Assembly (NCBI GenBank): GCA_025830695.1 | Contig: GCA_025830695.1_4111.2 | Length of the DNA: 64,000 nt | From: a phage | Direction: 5' to 3' (one strand) | Shown: positions 8,519-50,830 of the stretch, in pieces | Numbering within the stretch: the stretch's first letter is position 1 | How the letters are laid out: every line of letters starts with the position of its first letter | Position numbers and translations under genes: made by a program | Notes under the pieces: generated by a model | Told to the model about the DNA's origin: nothing | The model's input: the letters and a program-made list of their open reading frames with translations, nothing else | Database searches by the model: none

Positions 8519-9160
8519 ATGACTAAGCAAGAAATATTCAAAACTTTAATTGACATTTTGCGTCCATCAAAAACTCGTTGTGCGATGGAGTTTGATATTC
8601 CTTATGCTGAACGCGTAATCTTTCCACAAGTTAAAGCTGCTGGACTTACTTTGCTTGGAATGGGGATGTACTCTGTAGTAGTTGAACATAAAAACTATCC
8701 TGGACGTGCATTTAAAGTAACCACTTCACGCTGGGATGGTTTTCGTGCTTATGCAAAGTACTGCATTGAAAACGCAGGAACCAAGTTTCTTCCAGTGATC
8801 TACAGTGCAAACGAACAAGGAAACTTTGGATGGTATGAGATGGACAAGTACTATCCTATAATTAAACAAAAAAATAATTATGATGACTTTGTTAGTACTA
8901 AAATTGGAGATTTATATTCTTATGCACATGCTGGTCAGTACGCTACTTCAGTGAATGATATGCGTGGTAATTCTGAAGAGATTGCTATTGCGACGGTCGC
9001 TGCTAACATCATGAAAGAGTTTCACGGGCGTTTTGTACCAGACATTCATTCCAGTAATGTCATGATGGATAAAGATGGCAATGTATTCATTACTGATCCT
9101 CTTTCGTGTGATGTACGTAGAGAAATACCAGTTACTGAAGAAGATCCAGTTTTTTATTGA
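8519..9160 (+). CDS. kinase-like motif protein (213 aa)
   Basis: GAGGA SD; GMGMYSVVV...AFKV and DIHSSN...ITDP resemble kinase Gly-loop and catalytic-loop motifs. Confidence 0.5.
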   Translation: MTKQEIFKTLIDILRPSKTRCAMEFDIPYAERVIFPQVKAAGLTLLGMGMYSVVVEHKNYPGRAFKVTTSRWDGFRAYAKYCIENAGTKFLPVIYSANEQGNFGWYEMDKYYPIIKQKNNYDDFVSTKIGDLYSYAHAGQYATSVNDMRGNSEEIAIATVAANIMKEFHGRFVPDIHSSNVMMDKDGNVFITDPLSCDVRREIPVTEEDPVFY

Positions 9161-9221
9161 CAGAACTGATGTTCTGGTGTATTCTTAATAAACCATAAAA
9201 ATTGCGGTAAAGGATAAAATC

Positions 9222-9503
9222 ATGCGTTCATTTGAAAAATTAATAGGTAAGCATCTTTTATCTGAAATTGATGCAGACGTTAAAGAATTATCCAAATCAA
9301 AAAGTTACATTCATTTGGATGAACTGTTTATTAAGTACGGTGAGATTGGTTTTAAGTCATTATTTGTTTTTACTATGAAAGTACATAGTTTAAAGTACTT
9401 CGATTTGAGTTCTAAAGATGGTGAACCGAATCTATATTACATGTATTACCTTAAGAACAAAGATGAAGCTAATACATTACTCTCTGAATATATATTGGGG
9501 TAA
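9222..9503 (+). CDS. hypothetical protein (93 aa)
   Basis: ORF with AAAGGA SD. Confidence 0.55.
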   Translation: MRSFEKLIGKHLLSEIDADVKELSKSKSYIHLDELFIKYGEIGFKSLFVFTMKVHSLKYFDLSSKDGEPNLYYMYYLKNKDEANTLLSEYILG

Positions 9504-9505
9504 AA

Positions 9506-9844
9506 ATGGAACAATATTTTGAATTAATAAACAAAGTATCATTTTATGTAGTATCTTTGGTTTGGGTGTATTATATGTTTTGCTACATTATTGCATTCTT
9601 CCGATACACTACTTTATATGAACGTATCTACTATGATGCCCCAATTTCATTCTTGATGTTTTGTGCATGTACGTGGGGAATATTAGAAGTACTGATATGT
9701 GGGTATAGTACTGATGAATTAAATCTGGTATCGGTCTTGACTGGGTTTTCATTTGTTGTTATGATAGCTGCCGTTCCAGTATGGTTGTTCTTTGGACTAG
9801 TTCATCGCATTGATATATGGCGTTCTAATATCCCTGAAAAGTAA
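9506..9844 (+). CDS. small membrane protein, paralog family M1 (112 aa)
   Basis: Three TM-like segments; C-terminal NIPEK tail. Confidence 0.55.
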   Translation: MEQYFELINKVSFYVVSLVWVYYMFCYIIAFFRYTTLYERIYYDAPISFLMFCACTWGILEVLICGYSTDELNLVSVLTGFSFVVMIAAVPVWLFFGLVHRIDIWRSNIPEK

Positions 9845-9853
9845 GGATTGGTA

Positions 9854-10195
9854 ATGATTTATTACACTAACATGTTTGCCTATGCTGTTGCTTGCATTTA
9901 CATTGTGTACTTCTTATTCGGTGGAGTACTGTGCTTCTTTAAGTACAAAACGTTGTTCAACCGAATGTACCCAAATCATCCAATTGTAGTTGTACTTTTG
10001 ATTCTTTCAGTTTCTCAAATAATCGTTGAAACTACAATGGGTATCAGTAGTGTACATTATAGTTTTGGCACTATAGTAATTATTACTATGCTTATTGCAT
10101 ACATTTTAGTACTTGGATATGGTATCTTTGGTAATATTGGTATGAAAATGTATCATCGAATTAAAACATTACGTGATAATCTACCGGAGCGTTGA
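9854..10195 (+). CDS. small membrane protein, paralog family M1
   Basis: In-frame ATG after AAGGA; C-terminal NLPER tail. Confidence 0.55.
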   Translation: MIYYTNMFAYAVACIYIVYFLFGGVLCFFKYKTLFNRMYPNHPIVVVLLILSVSQIIVETTMGISSVHYSFGTIVIITMLIAYILVLGYGIFGNIGMKMYHRIKTLRDNLPER

Positions 10196-10196
10196 T

Positions 10197-10541
10197 ATGT
10201 ATAATTTGAACCTAATCTCATATATTATAACAACACTGTTTACATTCTATGCCTTTGTTGGTATAATCCTACTGTACTTTAAATTTTATAAAGTGTTTAA
10301 CCGTTTCTATCCTTCAATGGAGAATGAGTTTTTCTTTGTGTTGTACGTAGGTTACACATTAATGGCTACATGTTTCACTGTAGCCGATGGTGTCATCGGC
10401 ATTAAAACTGATTCCCCAAATGGTAGTACGCTGGTTGCATTTATTCTTACTGGATTCCTTGCAACTTATATAGCCTTCATTACAACATGGTCAGTGGTTG
10501 AATTTCTCTTGCGACTACGAAAGAATATGCCAAATCGATAG
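10197..10541 (+). CDS. small membrane protein, paralog family M1
   Basis: ATG 1 nt after upstream stop; C-terminal NMPNR tail. Confidence 0.55.
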   Translation: MYNLNLISYIITTLFTFYAFVGIILLYFKFYKVFNRFYPSMENEFFFVLYVGYTLMATCFTVADGVIGIKTDSPNGSTLVAFILTGFLATYIAFITTWSVVEFLLRLRKNMPNR

Positions 10542-10550
10542 GAGACATAT

Positions 10551-10805
10551 ATGTTTGCGTTGCGTAATAAAAACACTAAAGAATTATTATGTATTGATAC
10601 CGTATGGGATTGTGCGGGATCAACTACAGTTCTTGAAGAAGGAACTGGATATTGCGTGTTTGTTGTTCATGATAGGAATGAACTCGAATTATTACTTGCT
10701 GAGTTCAATGCTGGTGGTAATCCTAACAGTACTGAATACCCTGAGATTATCAATCCAGCACCACCAGGCTCTTATGAAATTCTACAACTGTGGGAGTTGA
10801 AGTAA
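10551..10805 (+). CDS. hypothetical protein (84 aa)
   Basis: ORF with AGGAGA SD. Confidence 0.55.
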   Translation: MFALRNKNTKELLCIDTVWDCAGSTTVLEEGTGYCVFVVHDRNELELLLAEFNAGGNPNSTEYPEIINPAPPGSYEILQLWELK

Positions 10806-11185
10806 TGCGTCAAATGCACAAAGTAACCGAGCTAAACAAGCGTCTGGTTAAACAATCAATGTTCGAGGATAAAGAGTCTTATTATAACTTTAAACGTGCT
10901 GTAGAGGCTGCTATCCACATTCAGAAGCTTAAAGAACGTGGTTGTATTATTCTGGAAAATGGGTCGGAAGTTGTAACGGATGACTTTAGTGTAGCGTTTG
11001 ATGTTTCACCTGACGGGACGCTATCAATGCCCCGCTTAGGAACTGGAAACATGACTGTTTGGGTTGGCTTCACTATGGGGAATGTACCTGGTACTGTATA
11101 CGTAGATGATGCAGAATTGAAAGACAGTTTCAAAAACTTATCTTATCTTGAACCACAATACGCACATGAAATGAATTTATTTTGA
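10805..11185 (+). CDS. hypothetical protein (126 aa)
   Basis: ATG overlaps upstream stop. Confidence 0.5.
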   Translation: MRQMHKVTELNKRLVKQSMFEDKESYYNFKRAVEAAIHIQKLKERGCIILENGSEVVTDDFSVAFDVSPDGTLSMPRLGTGNMTVWVGFTMGNVPGTVYVDDAELKDSFKNLSYLEPQYAHEMNLF

Positions 11186-11186
11186 G

Positions 11187-11243
11187 TTGACAAACACATT
11201 CCGTACTATATAATGCTTATCAAGGGGATGAACTTCTCATCCC
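11187..11243 (+). promoter_or_regulatory. promoter (TTGACA-16-TATAAT) + 5'-UTR stem-loop (PeSL-like)
   Basis: TTGACA 11187-11192, TATAAT 11209-11214, hairpin GGGGATGA-ACTTC-TCATCCC. Confidence 0.6.
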
Positions 11244-11261
11244 TACAATCGAGGAACTACC

Positions 11262-11816
11262 ATGATTACTTTTAAGAAAACTGCTAACCACATCCATGAA
11301 ATCTACATTAACGGTCACAAAGCTGGCCTTCTTCGTTTACTCGCCCATCACCCTGATGCTACCGTATCTGATAATGAACCTAAAGATTGGCGTGTCTTTT
11401 TCTTTGGAAAGTACAGTGATTTTCAAGTATCAAACCTGAAGAACATTCGTTCAGTATGCACGTTAACTGAAATTAAAGAAAAGTTAGCACAAGCATTGAA
11501 AACTAATCCAGATGGTGTTCTTCCACCTGATAACTTTGTAGAGAAAGGTTATGCCTTAGCTCATTTCAAAGATGGTACTATTCAATCTATCAGTACTGAA
11601 TATGAATATCATTGGACTGAGTACTTCACTTATGGTTCGAGTAATACATTGATGGATTCACGTAGTAAATTGGAAGAAGTACTGACTCGTATGAATGAAC
11701 GCGAGCGTCAGTTATATGACAAACCAGAAATGTGGAGTTCAACTTACATTGACCGTATTGACTATGTTATTATGACTCCAATCTTTGACACTGCTTACTA
11801 TGATTCTTTGAAATAA
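11262..11816 (+). CDS. hypothetical protein (184 aa)
   Basis: ORF with GAGGAA SD. Confidence 0.6.
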   Translation: MITFKKTANHIHEIYINGHKAGLLRLLAHHPDATVSDNEPKDWRVFFFGKYSDFQVSNLKNIRSVCTLTEIKEKLAQALKTNPDGVLPPDNFVEKGYALAHFKDGTIQSISTEYEYHWTEYFTYGSSNTLMDSRSKLEEVLTRMNERERQLYDKPEMWSSTYIDRIDYVIMTPIFDTAYYDSLK

Positions 11817-11827
11817 GGATAACTTAT

Positions 11828-12004
11828 ATGAAACTACGTACTCGTAATCGACTGATGGATGCACTGTACCATGAACAGCTTTCACTGAATGAAGTGAAGC
11901 GTCAGTTAATGTACACATATCAGTTTCCCGCTCGCATTGCAAAACAACGTGCTAAAGAATTGCTGAAAGAAGCAATCGAGTACTGGGAATCTGATTCATA
12001 CTAA
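11828..12004 (+). CDS. hypothetical protein (58 aa)
   Basis: AAGGA SD; below track cutoff; fills gap. Confidence 0.4.
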   Translation: MKLRTRNRLMDALYHEQLSLNEVKRQLMYTYQFPARIAKQRAKELLKEAIEYWESDSY

Positions 12005-12043
12005 TATTACGTGATATGTCACGTTAATTAAGTGAGGCGATAA

Positions 12044-12304
12044 ATGAAAATATTATTAGTTCTAATACTACTAATACTACTAATAGTTTTACCATTTACT
12101 TTAGTATCCCCTGAACTTGCATGGAATGTATTTGTGTACTTAGTATGTACTATTGTAGTAAATGGTATCTTGTTCTTAGTTCTATTCATAAATGGAATAG
12201 GACACGGTGGAGGATGGACCAGTACTGCTGATATTGTACATAAAACCACTATGTCTTTATTTGTAATGTGGAATTTGTTCTGGACTTGGTTTGTGTTCTT
12301 CTAA
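12044..12304 (+). CDS. small membrane protein (86 aa)
   Basis: GAGG SD; two hydrophobic helices. Confidence 0.55.
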   Translation: MKILLVLILLILLIVLPFTLVSPELAWNVFVYLVCTIVVNGILFLVLFINGIGHGGGWTSTADIVHKTTMSLFVMWNLFWTWFVFF

Positions 12305-12312
12305 TTAAAAAT

Positions 12313-12684
12313 ATGAATATAGATTTGAAAGGTGCAACACGAACTGTTATCCTCATTGGGGAATATGCTATCAAGATTCCAACCTTTAAAAGTTGGAAGC
12401 TATTCTTAACAGGGATGATAGCTAACCTCAATGAACGTTCGTGGATGCAGTACTCCAAACGTAGTGATAGTAGTATCTGTCCTACGTTGTGGTCATCATG
12501 TACTGGACTAGTAACTGTACAGAAACGTTGTAAGCCAGTGCAACATAGGGGTTTATTTTGGGTGGAGTTGTGTGCTTTAGCATTGAATTCAGAGTTAAGT
12601 ACTGACTTCTTCTATTCAGATGCGAAGCCAGAAAACTTTGGATATCTGGATGGTAAGTTAGTTAAACTTGATTATGGAGATTAA
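12313..12684 (+). CDS. kinase-like motif protein (123 aa)
   Basis: DAKPENFG...KLVKLDYG resembles kinase catalytic loop and DFG-like motifs. Confidence 0.5.
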   Translation: MNIDLKGATRTVILIGEYAIKIPTFKSWKLFLTGMIANLNERSWMQYSKRSDSSICPTLWSSCTGLVTVQKRCKPVQHRGLFWVELCALALNSELSTDFFYSDAKPENFGYLDGKLVKLDYGD

Positions 12685-12685
12685 T

Positions 12686-12955
12686 ATGTACGCATTGTAT
12701 AATAAAGAAAAGAAACGATTTGCTAAGGTTGAAATTTCGATTGATACGTTTGATATGTTGGAGTACTGTATTGTAACGGACCTATATGCTAACTTGTATT
12801 ACGTTCTTGATGACGTATCAGTACTGCAACGATTGCTTGAGAATTCCAAAAGTCAATGCCAGGGCATCCATGATGGTTCATCCTATGAAACTCCTGAGTG
12901 TTCATATGGCTATCTGGACGGCTATGAGATTGTTAAGTTGGGGATCATTGAATAA
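12686..12955 (+). CDS. hypothetical protein (89 aa)
   Basis: ATG after GGAGA, 1 nt after upstream stop. Confidence 0.5.
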   Translation: MYALYNKEKKRFAKVEISIDTFDMLEYCIVTDLYANLYYVLDDVSVLQRLLENSKSQCQGIHDGSSYETPECSYGYLDGYEIVKLGIIE

Positions 12956-12961
12956 AGAAAA

Positions 12962-12986
12962 GGGTTGACTTCGGTCAGCCCTTTTT
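12962..12986 (+). terminator. intrinsic terminator GGGTTGACTTCGGTCAGCCC + T5; stem TTGACT 18 nt upstream of TATAAT
   Basis: Hairpin plus T-tract; TATAAT at 12989-12994. Confidence 0.85.
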
Positions 12987-13022
12987 GCTATAATTATTTC
13001 ATCAAGACGAGAGGATGAATAC

Positions 13023-13538
13023 ATGACACGCATTAACTTAGTACACGTTAAAGAACTTGCTGACCAACATCTGATGGCTGAATATCGTGAACTCCCACGT
13101 GTATTTGGTGCTGTACAAAAACACGTTCAAGCACGTAAGCGTGTACGTGATTTCAAAATTAATAGTACTTATCTGTTAGGTTCAGGTCATGTGACATTCT
13201 TTTACGACAAGTTATTGTACTTACAGAAGCGTCATATTGATATTGTCAACGAATGTCTGCGTCGTGGTATGAAGATTCAAAACACTGAAGTAAACGACAT
13301 TAGCGGCTTCCCTGCTGAGTTTTGTAATGACTACGTACCAACGGAGTCAGAGATTAAAATGTCTCGTGATCGTTTGATTGAGAAGCTCCAGATGAAGCCT
13401 ACGTGGTATAAGTTTACTGATGTTGAATGTCCACAGTACGTTAAAGATATGCAGAACGTAAGTAGTAAGAACGAATCTAGTACTGATATGTTCGACGAAA
13501 TTGAAGAACAAATCAAAGATGAAATGAATAATTATTAA
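13023..13538 (+). CDS. denV: pyrimidine-dimer DNA glycosylase / endonuclease V (171 aa)
   Basis: N-terminal ~130 aa closely match T4 endonuclease V ([40 protein letters not shown]); extra acidic C-terminal tail. Confidence 0.93.
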
Positions 13539-13576
13539 AGGAAAGGGTTGACTTCGGTTACACAAAGGAACATAAC

Positions 13577-13771
13577 ATGTTATTAGTATATTCAACGCGT
13601 TTCTGGATTTCTTTTATTGTACTATCGCTAATCGGCTTCGGTTTGAGTATACTCTTTTCGTGGGATGAATTGGGTACATGGTATTATGAAGTCCCGTGGT
13701 ACATGAAGATAGCTCCTTGTTATGCGGCATTGTTCGTGTCATTCCTTCTTGTTGTCTTCAGCGAGGATTAG
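13577..13771 (+). CDS. small membrane protein (64 aa)
   Basis: AAGGAA SD; two hydrophobic helices. Confidence 0.5.
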   Translation: MLLVYSTRFWISFIVLSLIGFGLSILFSWDELGTWYYEVPWYMKIAPCYAALFVSFLLVVFSED

Positions 13772-13822
13772 TTGATGTAGTATGTGATACACCAAAGTAT
13801 TTGGATATTTGATATATAAACA

Positions 13823-13851
13823 TTGACACCTGTTCTATCTTTCTGTATTAT
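13823..13851 (+). promoter_or_regulatory. sigma70-like promoter (TTGACA-17-TATTAT)
   Basis: Consensus -35 with 17-bp spacer upstream of 13878 gene. Confidence 0.55.
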
Positions 13852-13877
13852 GTACATCACCAAATGAGGAATACAAC

Positions 13878-14237
13878 ATGGCATCTTTAAGTGAAATCGC
13901 AGAATACAACCCACTAACAATCTCAACAATTCAACGTACAAAAACTTTTTATTTCCGTCCTGCTGATGGATGGAAACGTGGAATGAATGGTGACTATCGA
14001 GTACTGGAAGATTCGCTCATCGAGCGTATCAACTCTGAACTACAGAACTATGAAGGTGTTAAAGTTGTGCGTTCAACTTCTCGTTATTTTGAGTACTACA
14101 TTGAGTCTTCAACTGTAAATGAAAACTCATCATTATCGGTGGACAACACTGATATTCTTCGTAATGCAGTTGGTATGTTATGCAACATTGCAGAAGAAAT
14201 GGGATTAACTATTAGTACTATGAGTGAATTAGAATAA
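13878..14237 (+). CDS. hypothetical protein (119 aa)
   Basis: ORF with GAGGAA SD. Confidence 0.6.
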   Translation: MASLSEIAEYNPLTISTIQRTKTFYFRPADGWKRGMNGDYRVLEDSLIERINSELQNYEGVKVVRSTSRYFEYYIESSTVNENSSLSVDNTDILRNAVGMLCNIAEEMGLTISTMSELE

Positions 14238-14243
14238 CATAAA

Positions 14244-14268
14244 GGGTTGACTTCGGTCAGCCCTTTTT
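14244..14268 (+). terminator. intrinsic terminator GGGTTGACTTCGGTCAGCCC + T5; stem TTGACT 18 nt upstream of TATAAT
   Basis: Hairpin plus T-tract; TATAAT at 14271-14276. Confidence 0.85.
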
Positions 14269-14304
14269 GCTATAATCATTTCATCAACTGAAGAGGGTAA
14301 AGAA

Positions 14305-15075
14305 ATGACCAGAGAAGCACGCAGCATTCAAATTCAGAAAAACTTCAACTCCATGATGGTTGCTCTTGAGTGTTTGCTCGATGATAGCAGTACTGTAAAA
14401 AGTATGGTTGTCAGTGGTGCTCCTGGTGTTGGTAAGACTTACACCTTGTCCCAACGTCTCCAGAAGGCTCATGACGCAGCAGAATGGAACGTAGCTACTA
14501 TCAGTGGTAAGATGACTACACTGGCTCTGTACGAAGTTCTGTACAAGAATCGTCACAGCACCAACGTGTTAGTACTGGATGATATGGACAGCATCTTTGA
14601 TTCAGAAGACGGTATGAACCTGCTCAAAGCAGTACTGGACAGCGGTAAACGTACTGTGTCTTACATGACTAGCTCTAAGTACTTAACCACTAACGGTATC
14701 CCTAACAGCTTTGATTTTAACGGTCGTATCGTATTCATCACTAACAAAGATTTAGCATTAGATGCTAAAGCTAAAACGAAAATGTCTGCTCACTATGCTG
14801 CTCTTATGTCTCGTTCTGTATACGTTGACTTACAGATTCAGACCAAAAGCGATATCATGATTCACATTGAGAACGTGATGAATCAGACTAACATTTTAGA
14901 ATCTAAGGGTATTAACCGTAATGGTAGTAAAGCAATTCTGAACTGGATGTTGAAGCACGAAGATTCTCTTCGTTCACCTTCACTGCGTATGCCACTGTTG
15001 ATTTCGGCAGTATATAACAACAACCCATACGATTGGGAAGAGCAGTGCGAAAACTTGTTCCTTGAGAAAATTTAA
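14305..15075 (+). CDS. P-loop NTPase / AAA-like ATPase (256 aa)
   Basis: Walker A GAPGVGKT and Walker B-like VLVLDDMD. Confidence 0.7.
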   Translation: MTREARSIQIQKNFNSMMVALECLLDDSSTVKSMVVSGAPGVGKTYTLSQRLQKAHDAAEWNVATISGKMTTLALYEVLYKNRHSTNVLVLDDMDSIFDSEDGMNLLKAVLDSGKRTVSYMTSSKYLTTNGIPNSFDFNGRIVFITNKDLALDAKAKTKMSAHYAALMSRSVYVDLQIQTKSDIMIHIENVMNQTNILESKGINRNGSKAILNWMLKHEDSLRSPSLRMPLLISAVYNNNPYDWEEQCENLFLEKI

Positions 15076-15082
15076 TTCCATA

Positions 15083-15111
15083 TTGACAGTACTACCATAG
15101 TGTAGTACTAT
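15083..15111 (+). promoter_or_regulatory. sigma70-like promoter (TTGACA-17-TACTAT)
   Basis: Upstream of M2 membrane-gene cluster. Confidence 0.5.
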
Positions 15112-15140
15112 AACTTAATATTCACCACCGGAGATACGAT

Positions 15141-15479
15141 ATGCTTGAGTTTTTTAATTCAGATACAATGATTAGTATTACTTTGATTTATCTGTTTGGT
15201 TTTTTCTTTTATCATGCACTGGTTGTAGTACTGTGGTATTTTAAAAAGAAAATTGTTTTTAAACTGTATCCAGTAAGGAATTCATCACTAGTTCTTTACA
15301 CACTAGTTCAAGGTTTGTTTGCAATTGTTGGTCTTATGGCACACTTAATTTATTGTGCCAATCCTCACTTGAACTCAATCTCACAATATATTGTATTCTT
15401 TGGGTTGTTCATTTGGTTAGTTGTATACTTAATCCATCTCATTATTCATGGTAGAGATAAAATTCGCGGAGACTTCTAA
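15141..15479 (+). CDS. small membrane protein, paralog family M2 (112 aa)
   Basis: First of seven coupled hydrophobic ORFs. Confidence 0.55.
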   Translation: MLEFFNSDTMISITLIYLFGFFFYHALVVVLWYFKKKIVFKLYPVRNSSLVLYTLVQGLFAIVGLMAHLIYCANPHLNSISQYIVFFGLFIWLVVYLIHLIIHGRDKIRGDF

Positions 15480-16843: not shown

Positions 16844-16844
16844 T

Positions 16845-43261: not shown

Positions 43262-43262
43262 T

Positions 43263-43522: not shown

Positions 43523-43541
43523 ACTAATTAAGGAATATGAA

Positions 43542-43688: not shown

Positions 43689-43691
43689 TAC

Positions 43692-43751: not shown

Positions 43752-43769
43752 ACTATCAGGAGAAACAAA

Positions 43770-43922
43770 ATGAAACAATATAATGCTCGGTTTGATGTTA
43801 CTATCGGTAACGGCAAAGGTCAATTTTCTTTCAGTACTCGACGCAGTTATACAGAAAACTTCCTGCGTAATTGTGCACTGACCGCCGCACAAATTAAACA
43901 TTACTTTCAGGCTAAAAAATGA
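43770..43922 (+). CDS. hypothetical protein (50 aa)
   Basis: ATG after CAGGAG SD. Confidence 0.45.
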   Translation: MKQYNARFDVTIGNGKGQFSFSTRRSYTENFLRNCALTAAQIKHYFQAKK

Positions 43923-44008
43923 AATCATTGGCTTATTACAGTTCGGCCCTGGTCGGTGCATTGATCGCGGCATTGTTAGTAACCTATCTATTCTTTATGG
44001 TGATTTAA
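43919..44008 (+). CDS. micro membrane peptide (29 aa)
   Basis: ATGA overlap; single hydrophobic helix. Confidence 0.35.
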   Translation: MKSLAYYSSALVGALIAALLVTYLFFMVI

Positions 44009-44143
44009 ATGAATCCTAACGGTATAATTTACAGTACTCCTAAAACGAAAGCAGACAAGGTAAACGCTAAAAAAGCGAAAGTAAAGGAGTACATCAAACA
44101 AGGAATGACACGAAAGGCCGCAGTACTTAAAGCTAAAAAATAA
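44009..44143 (+). CDS. hypothetical basic protein (44 aa)
   Basis: TAAATG junction; ends before terminator. Confidence 0.35.
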   Translation: MNPNGIIYSTPKTKADKVNAKKAKVKEYIKQGMTRKAAVLKAKK

Positions 44144-44153
44144 ATGAAAAAAG

Positions 44154-44177
44154 TGGTTGACTTCGGTCAGCCATTTT
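44154..44177 (+). terminator. intrinsic terminator TGGTTGACTTCGGTCAGCCA + TTTTG
   Basis: UUCG-tetraloop hairpin. Confidence 0.8.
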
Positions 44178-44203
44178 GCTATTATATATTCATTGAGAGA
44201 TAG

Positions 44204-44236
44204 CTCACTAGCCCACAGGGTGCAGGAGTGTATCTA
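44204..44236 (+). repeat. conserved leader element CTCACTAGCCCACAGGGTGCAGGAGTGTATCTA
   Basis: Also at 38258, 45891, 47901, 50896, 53161; inverted at 36168, 38329, 39932. Confidence 0.6.
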
Positions 44237-44289
44237 TTGTATAATGTTTGAGTACTGAAAACTATTTTAAAGTATTTGATAAAAAGTAC

Positions 44290-44349
44290 TTGCAAACTAT
44301 CTCAATAGGCGTATAATGTTTTACATCGAAAGGGGAAACGGTTTCCTCT
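44290..44349 (+). promoter_or_regulatory. PeSL-like cassette
   Basis: TTGCAA 44290-95, TATAAT 44312-17, hairpin AGGGGAAAC-GG-GTTTCCTCT. Confidence 0.65.
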
Positions 44350-44368
44350 GGTAATAAGGAAACGAATC

Positions 44369-44710
44369 ATGACTATCTCAATTGCTCAATCTAACTTTGA
44401 AAACGAAATCATCGCTCAGGCACTGCGTTTAAATGATGGTCGGGCCGAAATCAATTACGGTTTCAATTCAGGCGGTTGTGAAAAATATCAGTACTTTGTA
44501 ACGGCTGATGGCTGTGTCCTGGGCATCAATACAGTTATTGTAAACATTCAGAAAATTAATTTCAATGATCCAGACGATAGCCAGTTTTACATTGTAGGCG
44601 TAGACGTGAACTATGAGGATGACTCACTAACTGATGATCACACTGGCGAGCGGTTAGAAAGTGCATACGGTGAAGATGATTATCAGTCCGGTCCAGAAGA
44701 TTTCGAATAA
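44369..44710 (+). CDS. acidic hypothetical protein (113 aa)
   Basis: AAGGAAA SD. Confidence 0.6.
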   Translation: MTISIAQSNFENEIIAQALRLNDGRAEINYGFNSGGCEKYQYFVTADGCVLGINTVIVNIQKINFNDPDDSQFYIVGVDVNYEDDSLTDDHTGERLESAYGEDDYQSGPEDFE

Positions 44711-44724
44711 TATTAAAAAATAGT

Positions 44725-44783
44725 TTGACAATAGATTATAGTACTGTATAATGTTTTACATGAAGGGGAGAATAGTTCTCCCC
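44725..44783 (+). promoter_or_regulatory. PeSL-like cassette (TTGACA-16-TATAAT)
   Basis: TTGACA 44725-30, TATAAT 44747-52, hairpin GGGGAGAATAGTTCTCCCC. Confidence 0.7.
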
Positions 44784-44803
44784 ACTAACAGAGAGAAAAC
44801 AAA

Positions 44804-45016
44804 ATGGCTAATATCCGGTCGAAATTAAAAAATGCAAAACAAGTTTTATTTTCAGATCATGAATACTTTAATAAAGATATTACAGGAGTTACAAGTATCA
44901 AGGAGGTAAAAGAAAAAACCGGAGTTTTGTGTGATGTGCGATTAGTTGGAACATTTGGGAATAACGTGCTATATCGCTGTGGTGATTACAATTTTACACT
45001 GACTATTATTAACTAA
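44804..45016 (+). CDS. hypothetical protein (70 aa)
   Basis: AGAGAGAAA SD. Confidence 0.6.
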   Translation: MANIRSKLKNAKQVLFSDHEYFNKDITGVTSIKEVKEKTGVLCDVRLVGTFGNNVLYRCGDYNFTLTIIN

Positions 45017-45045
45017 AAAATATTATCACAGTACTATCAAAGCTA

Positions 45046-45074
45046 TTGACACTGATTGATAGTACTGGCATAAT
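45046..45074 (+). promoter_or_regulatory. promoter (TTGACA-17-CATAAT)
   Basis: Same architecture as 42294 promoter. Confidence 0.55.
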
Positions 45075-45109
45075 AACTTTTATCAACTACACTACTAAGG
45101 AATTAAAAA

Positions 45110-45289
45110 ATGGCTATCATCGCAAAAACTGAAATCGTTGGTCTGGATTCTATCATCATGACGTTTGAAGATCAAAAAGGTATGTATGTAGTTTCCTATG
45201 GTGATTATGTTCGGGAGTATGAAACGGTAGACGAAGCCTTTGAAAGCTATATTCGCCAGGTGAATAAAGCATACGACGACTACCGCTAA
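45110..45289 (+). CDS. hypothetical protein (59 aa), MAII family
   Basis: AAGGAA SD; below track cutoff. Confidence 0.45.
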   Translation: MAIIAKTEIVGLDSIIMTFEDQKGMYVVSYGDYVREYETVDEAFESYIRQVNKAYDDYR

Positions 45290-45315
45290 AATATATTACC
45301 AGTACTATTAAAGAT

Positions 45316-45344
45316 ATTGACAACGTTTGATAGTACTGTATAAT
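45316..45344 (+). promoter_or_regulatory. promoter (TTGACA-17-TATAAT)
   Basis: Upstream of 45389 gene. Confidence 0.55.
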
Positions 45345-45388
45345 AAGTTTTATAAACAGTAGTTAACTTAACCTAAGAGAGAAATAAA

Positions 45389-45532
45389 ATGATCGCACTG
45401 GATTCATTCATCGACGCAGTACTGGCAAAAACTGGCGAGGATCTGACCGCAGAACAATACGCAATGATCGAACAATGCCAGCAAGACGGTAAATCGGTGA
45501 AAGATACTGTTAAGATTATCCGCAAGATGTAA
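45389..45532 (+). CDS. hypothetical protein (47 aa)
   Basis: AAGAGAGA SD; followed by hairpin containing GCTGGTGG. Confidence 0.4.
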   Translation: MIALDSFIDAVLAKTGEDLTAEQYAMIEQCQQDGKSVKDTVKIIRKM

Positions 45533-45553
45533 GATTATAGCCCACTGGTTAAC

Positions 45554-45561
45554 GCTGGTGG
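45554..45561 (+). other. Chi-like octamer GCTGGTGG in terminator-like hairpin
   Basis: Exact octamer in AGCCCACTGG...GCTGGTGGGCT. Confidence 0.45.
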
Positions 45562-45637
45562 GCTTTAATTCATTACCCTATACAATGCCAGTACTAAACC
45601 GTTTATCTCGTTAGAATGCGTTACAGGACGTTTAACA

Positions 45638-45835
45638 ATGATTAGCATGAAATCAGTACAAAAACAAATAGAAACATTATCAAAAATTAAACGTAAACAG
45701 TACTCGTTAGAATATACAATCAATGGTAACTATCATCTAATGAAAGAGAATAATTTTATAGTCATTGATGAATCATTGCAAATCATTAGTATAGTACTGA
45801 AAGCATTAATCAATGACAGAAAAAAATTAAAATAA
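45638..45835 (+). CDS. hypothetical protein (65 aa)
   Basis: Complete ORF. Confidence 0.5.
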   Translation: MISMKSVQKQIETLSKIKRKQYSLEYTINGNYHLMKENNFIVIDESLQIISIVLKALINDRKKLK

Positions 45836-45839
45836 TCTA

Positions 45840-45868
45840 TTGACAATATCATCCAGTACTGGCATAAT
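45840..45868 (+). promoter_or_regulatory. promoter (TTGACA-17-CATAAT) with ~300-nt leader
   Basis: Leader holds CCCATAGGGTGC element and four GATC sites in 45928-45965. Confidence 0.5.
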
Positions 45869-46166
45869 ACTTACATCAAGACGAGAACGTCACTAACCCA
45901 TAGGGTGCACAAATGTAACTGTATAATATTGATCAAAAAATGATCTGATCAATACTTGATCAATTTGCGTAAAGTAGTATAATTCTATGCAGTTGGTTAG
46001 ACGAAAGGTTATGATTAGTAGTGCAAGTGTATAAAAATTTTCATGGTGTATCGTTTCGCACATATGGGGATGAATATGTGGTATCATGTGGATTGGAAAA
46101 AGTAAGAACAAGTAATATTATTGTCGCATTACAGTACTATAGTATTTTTATAATGAGGTTAAAATA

Positions 46167-46424
46167 ATGGCAGTAGGATACGCGAAAGACGGGGCCGAAC
46201 AAGACGAGATCAACGCAGTGATTCAGGCCGCCGTTAACCACGCTAGAAAGCAAATTAACGCACAAATAGAATCACTGATACATTGCCTCGACTGCGGCGA
46301 TATAATCCCTGAGAAACGACGCCAGGCCGTTAAGGGATGTAAGTACTGCATAACTTGCCAGGAGGATCATGATAGTACTTTTAAACGTCCCCCGCGTAAT
46401 TGTTGGCATAGATCTATGAGATAA
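46167..46424 (+). CDS. DksA/TraR-family C4 zinc-finger protein (85 aa)
   Basis: C-x2-C...C-x2-C spacing and CLDCGDIIPEKRRQA...CKYCITCQ match TraR/DksA zinc ribbon. Confidence 0.7.
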   Translation: MAVGYAKDGAEQDEINAVIQAAVNHARKQINAQIESLIHCLDCGDIIPEKRRQAVKGCKYCITCQEDHDSTFKRPPRNCWHRSMR

Positions 46425-46430
46425 AAAGTA

Positions 46431-46458
46431 TTGACAGTACTGAAAGATAGTGTATAAT
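46431..46458 (+). promoter_or_regulatory. promoter (TTGACA-16-TATAAT)
   Basis: Consensus hexamers upstream of 46488 gene. Confidence 0.6.
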
Positions 46459-46487
46459 GTTTTATATCTTAACTGAGGATAGAAATC

Positions 46488-46844
46488 ATGGGAATACAAC
46501 ATATCACGCGTACTACTGACAATGGCGAGATCACTGGTTATCAAGTACAGGGCAAAGTAGCACAATTGCAGTACTGGTTTGTTAAACGTGGAATCATTGC
46601 ACCGGATCTTGATTATGACCGTGTAGCGTTTATTGATTCTCTTTATGTTGATCCTGATAGTCGGGGCAATGGTGAAGGTAACGAATTAATGAATGCCTTT
46701 ATTGATGCCGCCGATGATTCAGATTGTATCATTTTAGAATGCGATACAGGAGAAGATAACGCCTTCAATCTTAAAGAATGGTACGAAGGTTTCGGATTCG
46801 AGGTACTGATCGATAGTGAATATCCTATCATGATTTTATCATAG
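46488..46844 (+). CDS. GNAT-like N-acetyltransferase (118 aa), tentative
   Basis: LYVDPDSRGNGEGNELM resembles GNAT motif A; C-terminal WYEGFGFE. Confidence 0.5.
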   Translation: MGIQHITRTTDNGEITGYQVQGKVAQLQYWFVKRGIIAPDLDYDRVAFIDSLYVDPDSRGNGEGNELMNAFIDAADDSDCIILECDTGEDNAFNLKEWYEGFGFEVLIDSEYPIMILS

Positions 46845-46847
46845 TAC

Positions 46848-46904
46848 TTGCATTTAGTTTTCAGTAGTGTTATAGTACTTACATCAAGGGGAAACATCTT
46901 CCCC
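46848..46904 (+). promoter_or_regulatory. PeSL-like cassette (TTGCAT-17-TATAGT)
   Basis: Hairpin GGGGAAACATCTTCCCC. Confidence 0.55.
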
Positions 46905-46916
46905 TACTAAGAGGAA

Positions 46917-47111
46917 ATGAAAATGGAAAACTTATCAAGTATTTTAGTACAAGATGATTTCGGTAATCCTGGAAGTGCTATCATTGTTCGGGGTAATAAA
47001 GCAACATTTGTTATTGCTGGTGGACCTGTACAGCGTAGCATTAAAAATAATGCTGTTACCATTAATAATGTACGCTATCGCTTAGATAAAGAATTGATTC
47101 ATAAACTTTAA
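46917..47111 (+). CDS. hypothetical protein (64 aa)
   Basis: GAGGAAA SD. Confidence 0.55.
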   Translation: MKMENLSSILVQDDFGNPGSAIIVRGNKATFVIAGGPVQRSIKNNAVTINNVRYRLDKELIHKL

Positions 47112-47119
47112 AAAAGTAT

Positions 47120-47179
47120 TTGACAATAGATTATAGTACTGTATAATAAGTTACATGAAGGGGAGAAATGATTCTCCCC
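47120..47179 (+). promoter_or_regulatory. PeSL-like cassette (TTGACA-16-TATAAT)
   Basis: Hairpin GGGGAGAAATGATTCTCCCC. Confidence 0.7.
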
Positions 47180-47196
47180 ACTGAGAGGAAAGAAAA

Positions 47197-47409
47197 ATGC
47201 AAGGTCAACTAATCGTTCGTAAATGGTCTGATACTAACGCTAAACCGTGGGATGTACAATACATCGGACCGGATGGGGTATCACGTTATCAGCCTGGCGT
47301 AACGCATAGTACTGAGCAATATGCCGCCGCTCACCGCGAACGCCTGTTAGAATCCATGAAACAGGGATACGGTGAAAAATTCATTCAAGATCATTGGCTG
47401 AAAGATTAA
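47197..47409 (+). CDS. hypothetical protein (70 aa)
   Basis: GAGAGGAAAG SD. Confidence 0.6.
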   Translation: MQGQLIVRKWSDTNAKPWDVQYIGPDGVSRYQPGVTHSTEQYAAAHRERLLESMKQGYGEKFIQDHWLKD

Positions 47410-47426
47410 TATAAGGAGTACAGCTT

Positions 47427-47519
47427 ATGCAAATGAATCCGATGATTATTGTGTTAGCTGTACTTATGATCATTCATGCAATAGTAGAAGTATTAACGCA
47501 ATCAGGAGTAATAAAATGA
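47427..47519 (+). CDS. micro membrane peptide (30 aa)
   Basis: AAGGAG SD; coupled to next ORF by ATGA. Confidence 0.35.
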   Translation: MQMNPMIIVLAVLMIIHAIVEVLTQSGVIK

Positions 47520-47689
47520 TTCAAGTAGAATTATCAGTACTGAAAGATCTGTTTTATCGGTTAGGTACTACTGGCGAGTATCCTAAAAGTGATACCGCAA
47601 AACTTTTTGTATCACTCGACTTATGGCAACGCGAACAATTAGTAATGTCCTGGCGTAAAGGTAAAGCAGATAGCGAGGTGAAAGCATGA
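47516..47689 (+). CDS. hypothetical protein (57 aa)
   Basis: ATGA overlaps on both sides. Confidence 0.4.
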   Translation: MIQVELSVLKDLFYRLGTTGEYPKSDTAKLFVSLDLWQREQLVMSWRKGKADSEVKA

Positions 47690-47835
47690 AAGAATTCTTA
47701 TTCGAAGTAGTGTTTCAAGGTGTCGGTAGTAACCAACTGATTCGCTCAAGTGGTTATAATGTTAACCAGGCATGGAATAACATTAAACAAATGTACCCGA
47801 ACGCTATCACCTATCGCAACCCGAAAGAAGTTTAA
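47686..47835 (+). CDS. hypothetical protein (49 aa)
   Basis: ATGA overlap; ends before terminator. Confidence 0.4.
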   Translation: MKEFLFEVVFQGVGSNQLIRSSGYNVNQAWNNIKQMYPNAITYRNPKEV

Positions 47836-47849
47836 AAATATTTGAAAAA

Positions 47850-47875
47850 GGGATTGACTCCGGTCAGTCCCTTTG
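47850..47875 (+). terminator. intrinsic terminator variant GGGATTGACTCCGGTCAGTCCC + TTTG
   Basis: 8-bp stem; TTGACT in stem ~17 nt upstream of TATTAT. Confidence 0.7.
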
Positions 47876-47933
47876 CTATTATATACGCATAGAAACAAAT
47901 CAGCCCACAGGGTGCATAAATGTATCTATTGTT

Positions 47934-47941
47934 TGCTGGTG
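47934..47941 (+). other. Chi-like octamer GCTGGTGG
   Basis: Intergenic, after conserved CCCACAGGGTGCAT element. Confidence 0.45.
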
Positions 47942-47973
47942 GCTAGTACTGAAAACTATTTTTAAAAAAGTAC

Positions 47974-48039
47974 TTGCATTGTACTTAGAATCAAGTATAA
48001 TGTTTTACATCAGGACGGGGAACGAAACAAGTAACCCCG
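47974..48039 (+). promoter_or_regulatory. promoter (TTGCAT-16-TATAAT) + leader hairpin ACGGGG...CCCCGT
   Basis: First of two tandem promoters for 48151 gene. Confidence 0.55.
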
Positions 48040-48089
48040 TTAAGTAGTCCAGGAGTAAGACATACGAAAAACTCCCCTGATAAAATAGT

Positions 48090-48117
48090 TTGACAATAGA
48101 AAGTAAACGAGTATAAT
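48090..48117 (+). promoter_or_regulatory. promoter (TTGACA-16-TATAAT)
   Basis: Second tandem promoter upstream of 48151. Confidence 0.6.
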
Positions 48118-48150
48118 ACTTACATCAACCACTGATAAGGAAACATTAAA

Positions 48151-48426
48151 ATGCGGATTCTACTGACAGCTAACGAAATCGAACAAGTACTGACTACTAA
48201 CCTGGAAGACTGGAAACGTGAAGCAGATATCCAGGCGGTTCAACTGCTTAACGATAAGTTAACGCCGGATGACTTAAGCAAGATTGTAGATCCTCAATTC
48301 TACGAAGATATTCACGACACCGCGTTAAGCGTCGAGGATGTACTTGATAAGCACTACATTGATATTGATTTGCAGGTTTACGGTCGTAAAAACTTTATCA
48401 CTATTCACGACATTTATAATAATTAA
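48151..48426 (+). CDS. hypothetical protein (91 aa)
   Basis: AAGGAAA SD. Confidence 0.6.
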   Translation: MRILLTANEIEQVLTTNLEDWKREADIQAVQLLNDKLTPDDLSKIVDPQFYEDIHDTALSVEDVLDKHYIDIDLQVYGRKNFITIHDIYNN

Positions 48427-48429
48427 GTA

Positions 48430-48487
48430 TTGACAAAGTATCTTAGTACTGTATAATAGTTTACATCAAGGGGGGAATGGTTCCCCT
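48430..48487 (+). promoter_or_regulatory. PeSL-like cassette (TTGACA-16-TATAAT)
   Basis: Hairpin GGGGGAA-TGG-TTCCCC. Confidence 0.65.
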
Positions 48488-48509
48488 CCTAACAAAGAGA
48501 GAAATAAAA

Positions 48510-48833
48510 ATGGCTATGATCCTTACCCAGAAAGTAGAACTGAAAATTGTAACCTCCTTTGACATTAAAGTTAATCGGTGGACTGATTCACACGGCAATA
48601 CTTACCACTCTTGCTACGTGTCTGCATTGATTGGTGATCGTTGGGAAGACCTGGGACATGAAACCTTTACATACGGTTACGGTACGCAAGGCGAATACAC
48701 TGGTTTGGAGATCATTAAAGAAACCGTTATAGGTTTCAACCCGAAAGAAAAAGTTATTCACCGCATCGAAAAAGAGATTAACAAAGAAATAACAGTTCGC
48801 TACTACGATGTAAAACGTAAGAAAGACATGTAA
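48510..48833 (+). CDS. hypothetical protein (107 aa), paralog of 42366
   Basis: Shared NRWTDSHGNTYHSCYVS and TFTYGYG. Confidence 0.6.
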   Translation: MAMILTQKVELKIVTSFDIKVNRWTDSHGNTYHSCYVSALIGDRWEDLGHETFTYGYGTQGEYTGLEIIKETVIGFNPKEKVIHRIEKEINKEITVRYYDVKRKKDM

Positions 48834-48855
48834 TAGAATCCATTTAAAGTACTAT

Positions 48856-48884
48856 TTGACATTGCCCAGATAGTACTTTATAAT
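48856..48884 (+). promoter_or_regulatory. promoter (TTGACA-17-TATAAT) flanked by AGTACTAT/ATAGTACT inverted repeats
   Basis: Degenerate copy upstream of paralog at 37596. Confidence 0.55.
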
Positions 48885-48928
48885 AGACTCTAACTTGTAG
48901 TACTAACTTAACTAATAGGATGTATACC

Positions 48929-49324
48929 ATGATTACTAAATTCTACGCTACCCGTGAAGCTGCCCGTATTGTTGCACGCGAGGAAGGAGCAGCATTTAAA
49001 GACATGGGCAAAGATGCACCGAAAGGTCAACGCTGGGCCGTACAGTTCAAAGAAATCTCTGATATCGTGAATTCACCGGAGCCAGTACTAACAGCAGCAG
49101 AACTAAAACGAGCGGATTTACTGGCGTCAATACTTGATGCACAAGATGAGTTTATCGCTGATTCTGATATCAAAGTACAGACAAACCATACCGCTTGGAC
49201 TCACGCGGATCACCTGGCAAACCTTAAGCGTCCAAGTGAACTGGTACGCAACCAGAAAGAGATCCGACACGACCGTAAGGGTAATCGTGTAACAGTATAT
49301 AGTAAACGCCGCCAGGTTATCTAA
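48929..49324 (+). CDS. hypothetical protein (131 aa), paralog of 37596
   Basis: Shared N- and C-terminal motifs. Confidence 0.55.
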   Translation: MITKFYATREAARIVAREEGAAFKDMGKDAPKGQRWAVQFKEISDIVNSPEPVLTAAELKRADLLASILDAQDEFIADSDIKVQTNHTAWTHADHLANLKRPSELVRNQKEIRHDRKGNRVTVYSKRRQVI

Positions 49325-49346
49325 TAACTTGCAGTACTAACAACAC

Positions 49347-49371
49347 GGCGGGATCAGTTCCCGCCTTTTTT
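49347..49371 (+). terminator. intrinsic terminator (GGCGGGA-TCAG-TTCCCGCC + T6)
   Basis: GC-rich hairpin plus T-tract. Confidence 0.8.
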
Positions 49372-49386
49372 ATAGGATAAACTAAA

Positions 49387-49641
49387 ATGATTAAGGTACA
49401 ACTATCTAAAGATAATATCTTGCGGGTACACTATAAAGCACCACAGAGAATCATCACAAAGGCCGTACAGCTTGCTAATGAGTTTATTAATGGTAACCTA
49501 TTACCAAGGAAGTTAAGCAACGGAAAACTGCGTGTAATCGATGTAGACACTAACAACAGAATAGTAATTGAGAACACAGGAAAGATAAACCTATATGAAC
49601 ACCAACAATATAATAAGAAAATAAAACTAATATCACGTTGA
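49387..49641 (+). CDS. hypothetical protein (84 aa)
   Basis: AGGATAAA SD. Confidence 0.55.
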   Translation: MIKVQLSKDNILRVHYKAPQRIITKAVQLANEFINGNLLPRKLSNGKLRVIDVDTNNRIVIENTGKINLYEHQQYNKKIKLISR

Positions 49642-49666
49642 CAGTACTCAATTGTTTTAGTATTAT
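49638..49666 (+). promoter_or_regulatory. promoter (TTGACA-17-TATTAT)
   Basis: Duplicated at 49914 with same leader. Confidence 0.55.
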
Positions 49667-49694
49667 GTACACATACCAACACGGGAGAAACAAA

Positions 49695-49913
49695 ATGAAA
49701 TTATCTAAAATCGAAAAGAAAACTATTGATGAAGCAGTTAAGCACGGTTATACCTTTCGTAATGATTCACATTTTACCAATTTTCAACAAGGCCAAAGGA
49801 CTATTAAAAAACTAATTGACAAAGGTTTATTAGTTAAAGTAGATAACGGTAACGGCATTGAGTATCAGCCAACCCAAGACGCATTATCTTTAAAGAAATA
49901 TGCAATTATCTAA
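49695..49913 (+). CDS. hypothetical protein (72 aa)
   Basis: ATG after GGGAGAAA; track ORF is promoter-derived extension. Confidence 0.55.
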   Translation: MKLSKIEKKTIDEAVKHGYTFRNDSHFTNFQQGQRTIKKLIDKGLLVKVDNGNGIEYQPTQDALSLKKYAII

Positions 49914-49942
49914 TTGACAGTACTCAAATGTTTTAGTACTAT
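49914..49942 (+). promoter_or_regulatory. promoter (TTGACA-17-TACTAT)
   Basis: Paralog of 49638 promoter. Confidence 0.5.
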
Positions 49943-49971
49943 ATGTACATACCAACACGGGGGAAAACAAA

Positions 49972-50214
49972 ATGATTACTTTAGAAAAACGTATCAAAGA
50001 AACTACATCGCTGGTGGAATTGTTAACAGTACTGAAATGCCGTACTACTCGGTTTAGTACACCGGACTTTATTAATATGGTTGATGTTAACGGTCGTTAT
50101 CGCATTGCAGTAGAACAAGGAACAGCGAAAGTATTCAGTACTAAAAACACTAAGGAAGTGATTCACGCGGTTAGTGTGAAAAAAGTGGTTGCCATTGATA
50201 GTAAAGTACTGTAA
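49972..50214 (+). CDS. hypothetical protein (80 aa)
   Basis: GGGGGAAAA SD. Confidence 0.55.
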   Translation: MITLEKRIKETTSLVELLTVLKCRTTRFSTPDFINMVDVNGRYRIAVEQGTAKVFSTKNTKEVIHAVSVKKVVAIDSKVL

Positions 50215-50245
50215 GATAGTTTCATTAACTCAAGGAGAACATGCA

Positions 50246-50830
50246 ATGCGTAATTATACTAAATTCATCCGTACACTGTCAGAAATGGAAACCAACAAAG
50301 AGATCCTTTCAGCTTGTCGGTTAGCTGGCCTGGAGATCATCGGGGCGGGTTCTTCCCGTATCGTATTCGCTTTAAATGATCGGTTAGTGATTAAGGTCGC
50401 CAATTGTGATGCGGGTGTAGAACAAAATGAAACTGAATGTAAGGTATGGAATTTTTTAGACTATGACCGCCCTCAATTGAAACAGTACTTTGCAAAGGTG
50501 CATATGCATTTATGCGATCCTGATAATATGTTTATCGTTATGGATCGGTTGAGTACTGCAAGTAAAGGCAGTGTGAAGCACGTTAACGCGTGCAACGAAT
50601 TAAAGTACAATATTAAACGTAATGCCATTGAACGCCAGCACCGCTTTGCTGATGCACTACAACACGTCGATGATACATTATCAACACTAACGATAAGAGA
50701 TATCAGAAAACAGAATATCGGCCAGGATCGTAATGGACTTATTAAAGTACTTGATTACGGTTTAACCCGCAATATCTGGAATCAGTACTATAAAAAGCGT
50801 GATGTAAAAGCCGTAACTATAACACGATAA
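50246..50830 (+). CDS. kinase-like motif protein (194 aa)
   Basis: AGGAGA SD; GAGSSRIVF...IKVA and RDIRKQNIG...IKVLDYGL resemble kinase Gly-loop, catalytic loop, DFG-like. Confidence 0.55.
   Translation: MRNYTKFIRTLSEMETNKEILSACRLAGLEIIGAGSSRIVFALNDRLVIKVANCDAGVEQNETECKVWNFLDYDRPQLKQYFAKVHMHLCDPDNMFIVMDRLSTASKGSVKHVNACNELKYNIKRNAIERQHRFADALQHVDDTLSTLTIRDIRKQNIGQDRNGLIKVLDYGLTRNIWNQYYKKRDVKAVTITR

Follow-up and report, generated by a model that had tools for sequence, protein, structure and literature searches.

We analysed a window of 64,000 nucleotides from a phage (NCBI GenBank assembly GCA_025830695.1, contig GCA_025830695.1_4111.2; one strand, 5' to 3'), an Asteriusvirus jumbo phage of E. 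coli belonging to the 121Q/PBECO4/G17 group, and found that this one jumbo phage encodes three different minimal kinase cores. The three proteins, which we call A, B and C, are free-standing protein-kinase-like (PKL) cores that stop shortly after the DFG-equivalent motif. We give slightly better than even chances to the proposal that they would bind Mg-ATP and transfer phosphate, and would do so early and on host or defence components. The genes and their motifs are as follows:

Gene A, 8519-9160, + strand: 213 amino acids; a kinase domain of the T7 gp0.7 (T7K) family, lacking the shut-off domain; motifs LGMGMYS (46-52), AFK66V (Lys66), DIHSSN (175-180) and TDPLS, with DPL-Ser at 193-196 (D193)
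Gene B, 12313-12684, + strand: 123 amino acids; a mini-kinase core of PHROG 4301; motifs KGATRTV (from residue 6), AIK21I (Lys21), DAKPEN (103-108) and KLDYG (D120); key residues Gly7, Arg10, Lys21, Asn38, Glu41, Asp103, Lys105, Asn108 and Asp120
Gene C, 50246-50830, + strand: 194 amino acids; a PHROG 4301 mini-kinase with an N-terminal helical extension; motifs GAGSSRIV (33-40), VIK50V (Lys50), DIRKQN (152-157) and VLDYG (D170); key residues Gly33/Gly35, Arg38, Lys50, Asn61, Glu64, Asp152, Asn157 and Asp170

Around genes A and B the window is 98-99% identical to the Asteriusvirus phages 121Q, PBECO4, G17, phAPEC6 and UB; around gene C its identity to these phages is 93-99%. The start codons of all three genes match the GenBank annotation of near-identical phages. 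Ribosome-binding sites precede gene A (GAGGA) and gene C (AAGGAG); gene B starts 8 nucleotides past the preceding stop codon and has no obvious ribosome-binding site.

Kinase motifs and truncated fold

In all three proteins a Gly-rich loop comes first, followed in kinase order by the Lys of beta3, the catalytic loop (D-x4-N) and an Asp like that of DFG, and the motif residues are invariant columns in both the B- and C-family alignments. A regular expression for this ordered motif set, which was written post hoc, matched A, B and C alone among the 381 stop-to-stop open reading frames (ORFs) of the window, and matched no ORF over 200 shuffles. When family profiles were searched against all window ORFs, the next-best matches were the other members of the trio: the B-family profile matched gene C at 3.7e-6, and the broad C-family profile matched A at 0.014 and B at 0.14. 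Neither phmmer nor four family profiles run over all window ORFs revealed a fourth paralogue within the window. The initial annotation had described three small ORFs at 8519, 12313 and 50246 which share catalytic-loop and DFG-like motifs, an upstream Gly-rich segment and a conserved lysine. The ORFs are indeed present on the + strand, and the Gly-rich segment, the lysine and the ordered motif set were found in all three. However, the motifs it quoted occur in B (DAKPEN/LDYG) and C (DIRKQN/VLDYG) while A has its own versions (DIHSSN, TDPLS), and the trio makes up two families rather than one.

The AlphaFold2 model of B is confident (pLDDT 92.9, pTM 0.82) and has a bilobal kinase fold, with an N-lobe sheet and helix C followed by helix E, the catalytic loop and b7-b8. 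Its elements run in the order b1, b2, b3 (Lys21), helix C (Glu41), b4, b5, helix E, catalytic loop, b7, b8 and DYG, at which the protein ends. All three proteins retain Hanks subdomains I-VII, and subdomains VIII-XI, which comprise the activation segment/APE, the helix F Asp and helices G-I, are absent. The number of residues after the DFG-equivalent motif is 18 in A, 1 in B and 22 in C, so that all three are too short for canonical kinases, as had been pointed out in the initial annotation. The T7K kinase domain follows the same plan of subdomains I-VII and then an end.

In large metagenomic proteins of 450-970 amino acids the C-type module is repeated in tandem, with 2-4 complete copies per protein that each end about 10-15 residues past DYG, and the N-terminal helices of the next module begin right after the end of the preceding one. 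The module ends of these polyproteins thus provide an independent marker of the domain boundary. In four such proteins of 454-923 amino acids (P0141, P0143, P0151 and P0156) every module carries GxGSSRxV...K...E...D...LLDYG, and P0141 is found on contigs of up to 185 kb. Further, BFVD contains many similar small kinase-like proteins from phages and giant viruses.

Our confidence in the fold and family assignments is high, and the DFG-terminated architecture of about 120 residues is a new form of kinase-like protein. The solved chains of OspG/NleH/HopBF1 have 160-176 residues with helices past DFG, whereas B has 123 residues and ends at DFG+3; these proteins are eukaryote-directed type III effectors rather than phage proteins and have no sequence similarity to the mini-kinases. 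In the Rio/Bud32/archaeal Ark RNA kinases the helical C-lobe is still present, the matched chains having 173-269 residues; the catalytic loops of these kinases have signatures unlike those of the mini-kinases, and no profile match to them was found. Canonical Ser/Thr kinases (PF00069; TTK, PknB, MKK4/7) share D-[AL]-K-P-E-N and K-[LI]-D-[YF]-G with B. The mini-kinases differ from them in the absence of subdomains VIII-XI and in scoring under the Pfam gathering threshold, and B and C also have two invariant residues peculiar to their family, an Arg within the Gly-loop and an Asn within helix C.

Family relationships of the three proteins

PHROG 4301, a family of "unknown function", is matched by B at E 1.5e-44 and by C at E 7.9e-42. 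Our hhalign comparison of the deep B alignment with the broad C alignment gave 97.7% probability (E 1.3e-12) over 121 columns with motif aligned on motif; a comparison of this type using earlier shallow alignments of the two families was weak. By these alignments, B and C are paralogues that have diverged within a single phage-wide family of mini-kinases. The C-family profile also aligns with MKK4/MKK7 over the stretch between Gly-loop and DFG (E 1.3e-4 to 1e-3). B and C both lie outside the T7K family, whose kinase domain neither of them matches: the A family is linked to the C family over the N-lobe alone (83%, E 8.6e-6), and profile comparison found no detectable link between the A and B families. 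A single family of three paralogues was ruled out, given that pairwise BLASTP is insignificant and that A sits in the T7K family. The description of the trio as kinase-like is nonetheless sound, as A matches T7 gp0.7 and kinase PHROGs, and the C profile, which aligns with MKK4/MKK7, is homologous to the B family.

At least 124 homologues of B were found among 90%-identity clusters, nearly all of 117-135 amino acids, all devoid of Pfam domains and few of them named, as "hypothetical protein". In an alignment of 90 sequences reaching down to about 30% identity, Arg10, Lys21, Gly34, Asn38, Glu41 and Asp120 are invariant, Gly7 is kept in 89 proteins, Lys105 in 80 and Asn108 in 81, and position 103 is Asp in 79 and Glu in 11. 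The C-terminus lies no more than 4 residues from Asp120 in 81 of the 90 proteins, so the short form of B is the selected form and not an accident of truncation. B as a truncated pseudogene of a longer kinase was ruled out, since the 124 homologues (down to about 30% identity) share its length and C-terminus; the start of the next gene 2 nucleotides past the B stop codon was also counted against it. We observed one subgroup of the B family in which Glu103, Asp107 and Ser108 (e.g. VENKIDSFG) replace Asp103, Glu107 and Asn108, a set that looks like a correlated catalytic-loop rearrangement.

The close homologues of C have 191-212 amino acids, and the C protein is 100% identical in phAPEC6 and UB. 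A search of 1.84 billion representatives with the C-family profile revealed 2069 relatives at E<=1e-3, many of which end about 10 residues past DYG, and the wider C-type family was found in 60 phage genomes. Arg38, Lys50, Gly57, Gln60 and Glu64 are invariant in an alignment of 102 relatives, and Gly35, Ser36, Asn61, Asp152, Gly159, Asp170 and Gly172 are nearly so, with Gly35, Ser36, Asp152 and Asp170 kept in at least 90%. C is named a "putative protein kinase" in a small number of GenBank records (Munch, SE_PL, Muenster, K64-1 and Turkey3), and two (Erwinia pEa_SNUABM_5 and Kosakonia Kc263) call B a kinase; both are "hypothetical" in the remaining records, and PHROG 4301 is without a Pfam model. 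Our literature search for a study or assay of a PHROG 4301 mini-kinase found none, so B and C represent a large family outside Pfam that has had no dedicated study in the literature searched.

By its sequence, gene A belongs to the T7 gp0.7 kinase family, of which it represents the jumbo-phage branch, and is, as a kind, known. Among PHROG profiles it matched phrog_15752 ("protein kinase...") at E 1e-91 and phrog_2828 (Ser/Thr kinase) at E 8e-17, and BLASTP aligned it to residues 68-230 of T7 gp0.7 with 26% identity over 178 amino acids (E 5e-9). The columns invariant between A and T7-like kinases are G-x-G, Lys, D-x-H-x-x-N and T-D-P-x-S; T7K (PHROG 2828, PHA00451) thus resembles A in its Gly-loop, Lys, D-x-H-x-x-N loop and TDP-x-Ser, and the position of A as the first gene behind an early-type promoter is a further likeness. 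Homologues of A occur in 776 phage records, chiefly Autographiviridae. The protein is 100% identical in Salmonella phage SD-1_S14, and its G17 orthologue (99.1% identical) is annotated "putative protein kinase, PHA00451". Unlike T7K, gene A stops at residue 213, 18 residues beyond DPL, and has no C-terminal shut-off (SO) DNA-binding domain, which directs T7K to nucleic-acid-binding proteins. The two also differ in the DFG-equivalent motif (DPV in T7K, DPL in A) and their identity is just the 26% given above.

A 2026 Nature paper on T7K, in which the homologue search was founded on PHROG 2828, named two phages, Escherichia phage G17 and Salmonella phage Munch, whose diverged T7K homologues have lost the SO domain, and described the Val of DPV as less conserved among the jumbophage homologues, whose function "remains to be elucidated" (PMC13645617). 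The T7K kinase domain spans residues 1-242 with DPV at 213-215, leaving about 27 residues after the DFG equivalent (PMC13645617). In T7K, the Ser after DPV is the inhibitory autophosphorylation site. Gene A retains the Ser after DPx, and the Asp, Pro and Ser are all invariant in the T7-like alignment. With DPL followed by the autophosphorylation-site Ser and an end 18 residues on, A fits the jumbophage T7K homologues of that study (PMC13645617). The initial annotation had overlooked that gene A is a recognised, published T7K homologue.

Homologues of B were found in 126 phage records as well as in prophage accessory slots, and no partner gene is conserved beside them across the neighbourhoods examined. 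In Salmonella prophages the homologue lies between lysis and terminase genes, and in an Aquimarina prophage it lies ahead of terminase. In an Acinetobacter/marine siphovirus-like phage (6001-6360) it is found among small head-/tail-completion genes in the capsid-to-tail-tube interval, where its stop and start codons overlap with those of its neighbours, an odd site for an enzyme gene. The Dhakavirus genomes JS10 (2977-3345) and IME341 (2501-2845) carry it 1 nucleotide upstream of RNA ligase 2 (rnlB); in IME341 only a 165-nucleotide coding sequence is annotated over the match, and the gene appears to be under-called. T4 gene 24.2, which occupies the same slot beside rnlB, was considered as a diverged B homologue and rejected as an unrelated gene. 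In PaMx11 and SWJM-02 the homologue has DNA ligase nearby, in PhiZZ30 it precedes a tRNA cluster, and in Aeromonas phage 2L372X it sits amid ribonucleotide reductase genes.

Catalysis, substrates and alternatives

We propose that the conserved Lys/Glu/Asn/Asp set would hold Mg-ATP and that phosphate would then be transferred. The Lys/Glu pair, the catalytic acid, Lys105, Asn108 and the terminal Asp are kept at about 30% identity, which argues for an active phosphotransferase over a pseudokinase. As they have no activation segment or peptide-docking lobe, the proteins would be expected to be unregulated, poorly selective kinases. Produced early from host-type promoters, A, B and C would target host or defence components by early promiscuous phosphorylation, as T7K does. 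T7K acts as an unregulated, poorly selective kinase and disarms many bacterial defences through mass phosphorylation (PMC13645617). By analogy with T7K (PMC13645617), and given the promoter context described below, the role in host takeover that was suggested in the initial annotation is plausible. We put catalysis and such a role at about even.

Several observations weigh against this proposal. A Pfam scan of A and B gave no match, and none of the 90 B relatives matches any Pfam family. C reached 17.9 bits (E 0.002) against Pfam Pkinase (PF00069), for which the cut-off is 31.7, and only 4 of 102 C relatives reach Pkinase, weakly (best 5.7e-6). Across Pfam, NCBIfam and PADLOC there was no family-level assignment for B, and for C the kinase matches were all sub-threshold. 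The initial annotation had proposed profile searches and structure prediction as checks. The former were positive for A and the C family, whereas the B profile alone found no significant match among PDB sequences; the latter gave the confident kinase-type model of B described above, whereas the AlphaFold2 model of C is poor (pLDDT 59), with an unusable C-terminal half. In one subgroup of B relatives, Glu103 and Ser108 stand in place of the classical Asp and Asn. The catalytic machinery of canonical kinases depends on helix F as its anchor, and a core with nothing beyond DFG may lack stability or activity of its own and may need a partner. The early timing is drawn solely from consensus promoter matches, and our literature search for ATP binding or phosphotransfer by A, B, C or PHROG 4301 members found none.

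Rather than kinases, the proteins could be pseudokinases or other nucleotide-binding proteins (ATP sensors or sponges), or could perform other chemistry such as AMPylation, the activity of the kinase-like enzyme SelO. The truncated fold and the absence of Pfam-level similarity would fit this, as would the invariant Arg10 and Asn38 of the B family, which have no canonical kinase counterpart. However, pseudokinases typically lose at least one of the catalytic residues, and in the B family an acid at position 103 (90/90), Lys105 (80/90) and Asn108 (81/90) are kept alongside the nucleotide-binding Lys, Glu and Asp. This strict conservation makes the pseudokinase option, which the initial annotation had left standing, an unlikely one, and we regard the whole set of explanations as very improbable. 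It also seems distinctly unlikely that B and C are half-kinases in need of a host or phage partner or of a second copy, or dominant-negative decoys of host or defence kinases. Everything past DFG is absent from both, and C is weakly similar in sequence to PD-T4-6 defence kinases; OspG is completed by E2~ubiquitin, and Bud32 by Kae1/Cgi121. However, no conserved neighbour gene was found, the tandem polyproteins repeat the whole module and add no C-lobe, and strictly conserved catalytic residues argue against a pure decoy. A split kinase in which the gene after B (12686-12955) supplies the C-lobe was ruled out, as this gene is a phrog_8563 paralogue of another window gene (10551-10805) and the neighbours differ in other phages.

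The substrate, too, could be of another kind. B, and perhaps C, may phosphorylate RNA or DNA ends, a nucleotide, a signalling molecule or an envelope sugar, in which case a peptide-binding lobe would be unneeded, and aminoglycoside, Kdo and archaeal Ark RNA kinases are all kinase-like enzymes for non-protein substrates. The B family is strongly basic (median isoelectric point, pI, 9.5; median net charge +7; pI >8 in 87%), and the RNA ligase 2 gene of Dhakavirus, the DNA ligases of PaMx11 and SWJM-02 and the tRNA cluster of PhiZZ30 would be fitting neighbours. We nevertheless consider a non-protein substrate unlikely: the D-x-K-P-E-N loop of B has the Ser/Thr protein-kinase form and not the H-x-D-x4-N of APH/CAK, the gene neighbourhoods of the B family are not conserved, and in T4 the slot beside rnlB is filled by an unrelated gene, so that the adjacency could be a matter of chance.

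More tentatively, and as something rather less likely than not, we put forward that the B family of about 120 residues is an autonomous enzyme and the smallest known protein-kinase-like catalyst, either a motif-blind protein kinase or an RNA/nucleotide kinase, used against hosts or their defences by many unrelated phages. Such an enzyme would need no helix F, activation segment or substrate-docking lobe, and in its protein-kinase form would be constitutively on; the RNA/nucleotide-kinase version is hinted at by the positive charge of B and by the RNA ligase 2 adjacency in some T4-like phages. If the 120-residue form is active, it would be the catalytic unit beyond which the kinase fold cannot be reduced, with all beyond DFG dispensable for chemistry, and both protein engineering and research on phage-host conflict would gain a very small kinase, perhaps an unregulated one. 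Should B prove inactive by itself, its completing partner would represent a new mode of kinase control.

Promoters and neighbouring genes

A hairpin of 20 nucleotides, GGGTTGACTTCGGTCAGCCC (with variants), occurs in 11 copies on the + strand of the window where 0 are expected, at 2330, 5572, 5755, 7374, 8458, 12962, 14244, 44154, 47851, 50846 and 53113. The -35 box TTGAC(T) forms the 5' arm of the hairpin, and a (TG)TATAAT-like -10 box follows 17-18 nucleotides on. The cassette looks like a fused terminator and host-type sigma-70 early promoter which punctuates units of small genes; the annotation of G17 lists the hairpin sites as terminators only. The sites that flank the three kinase genes are as follows:

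8458-8490, + strand: cassette directly before gene A; a terminator-like hairpin with the -35 box TTGACT, then TG-TATGAT
12962-12994, + strand: cassette that closes the unit from A to the gene after B and opens the denV unit
49914-49942, + strand: sigma-70-like promoter, TTGACA-17-TACTAT, upstream of the two-gene unit 49972-50214 and gene C
50846-50877, + strand: cassette variant GGATTGACTCCGGTCAGTCC, directly downstream of gene C

These promoter matches suggest that A, B and C are transcribed early by the host RNA polymerase. Genes A and B lie between consecutive cassette copies, and promoter-like sites are also found inside this interval, so a single transcript is not required.

The genes between A and B encode small proteins without assigned function. 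Among them we observed three tandem paralogous small membrane proteins (phrog_19285) at 9506-9844, 9848-10195 and 10197-10541, and the first member of the phrog_8563 paralogue pair (10551-10805 and 12686-12955). The ribosome-binding site of the second member lies within the last codons of gene B. The unit after the A-to-B stretch contains a T4 endonuclease V-type pyrimidine dimer DNA glycosylase gene (denV) at 13023-13538. Finally, the GC skew is about -0.17 over positions 20001-36000 of the window and positive elsewhere, suggesting a block of - strand genes.

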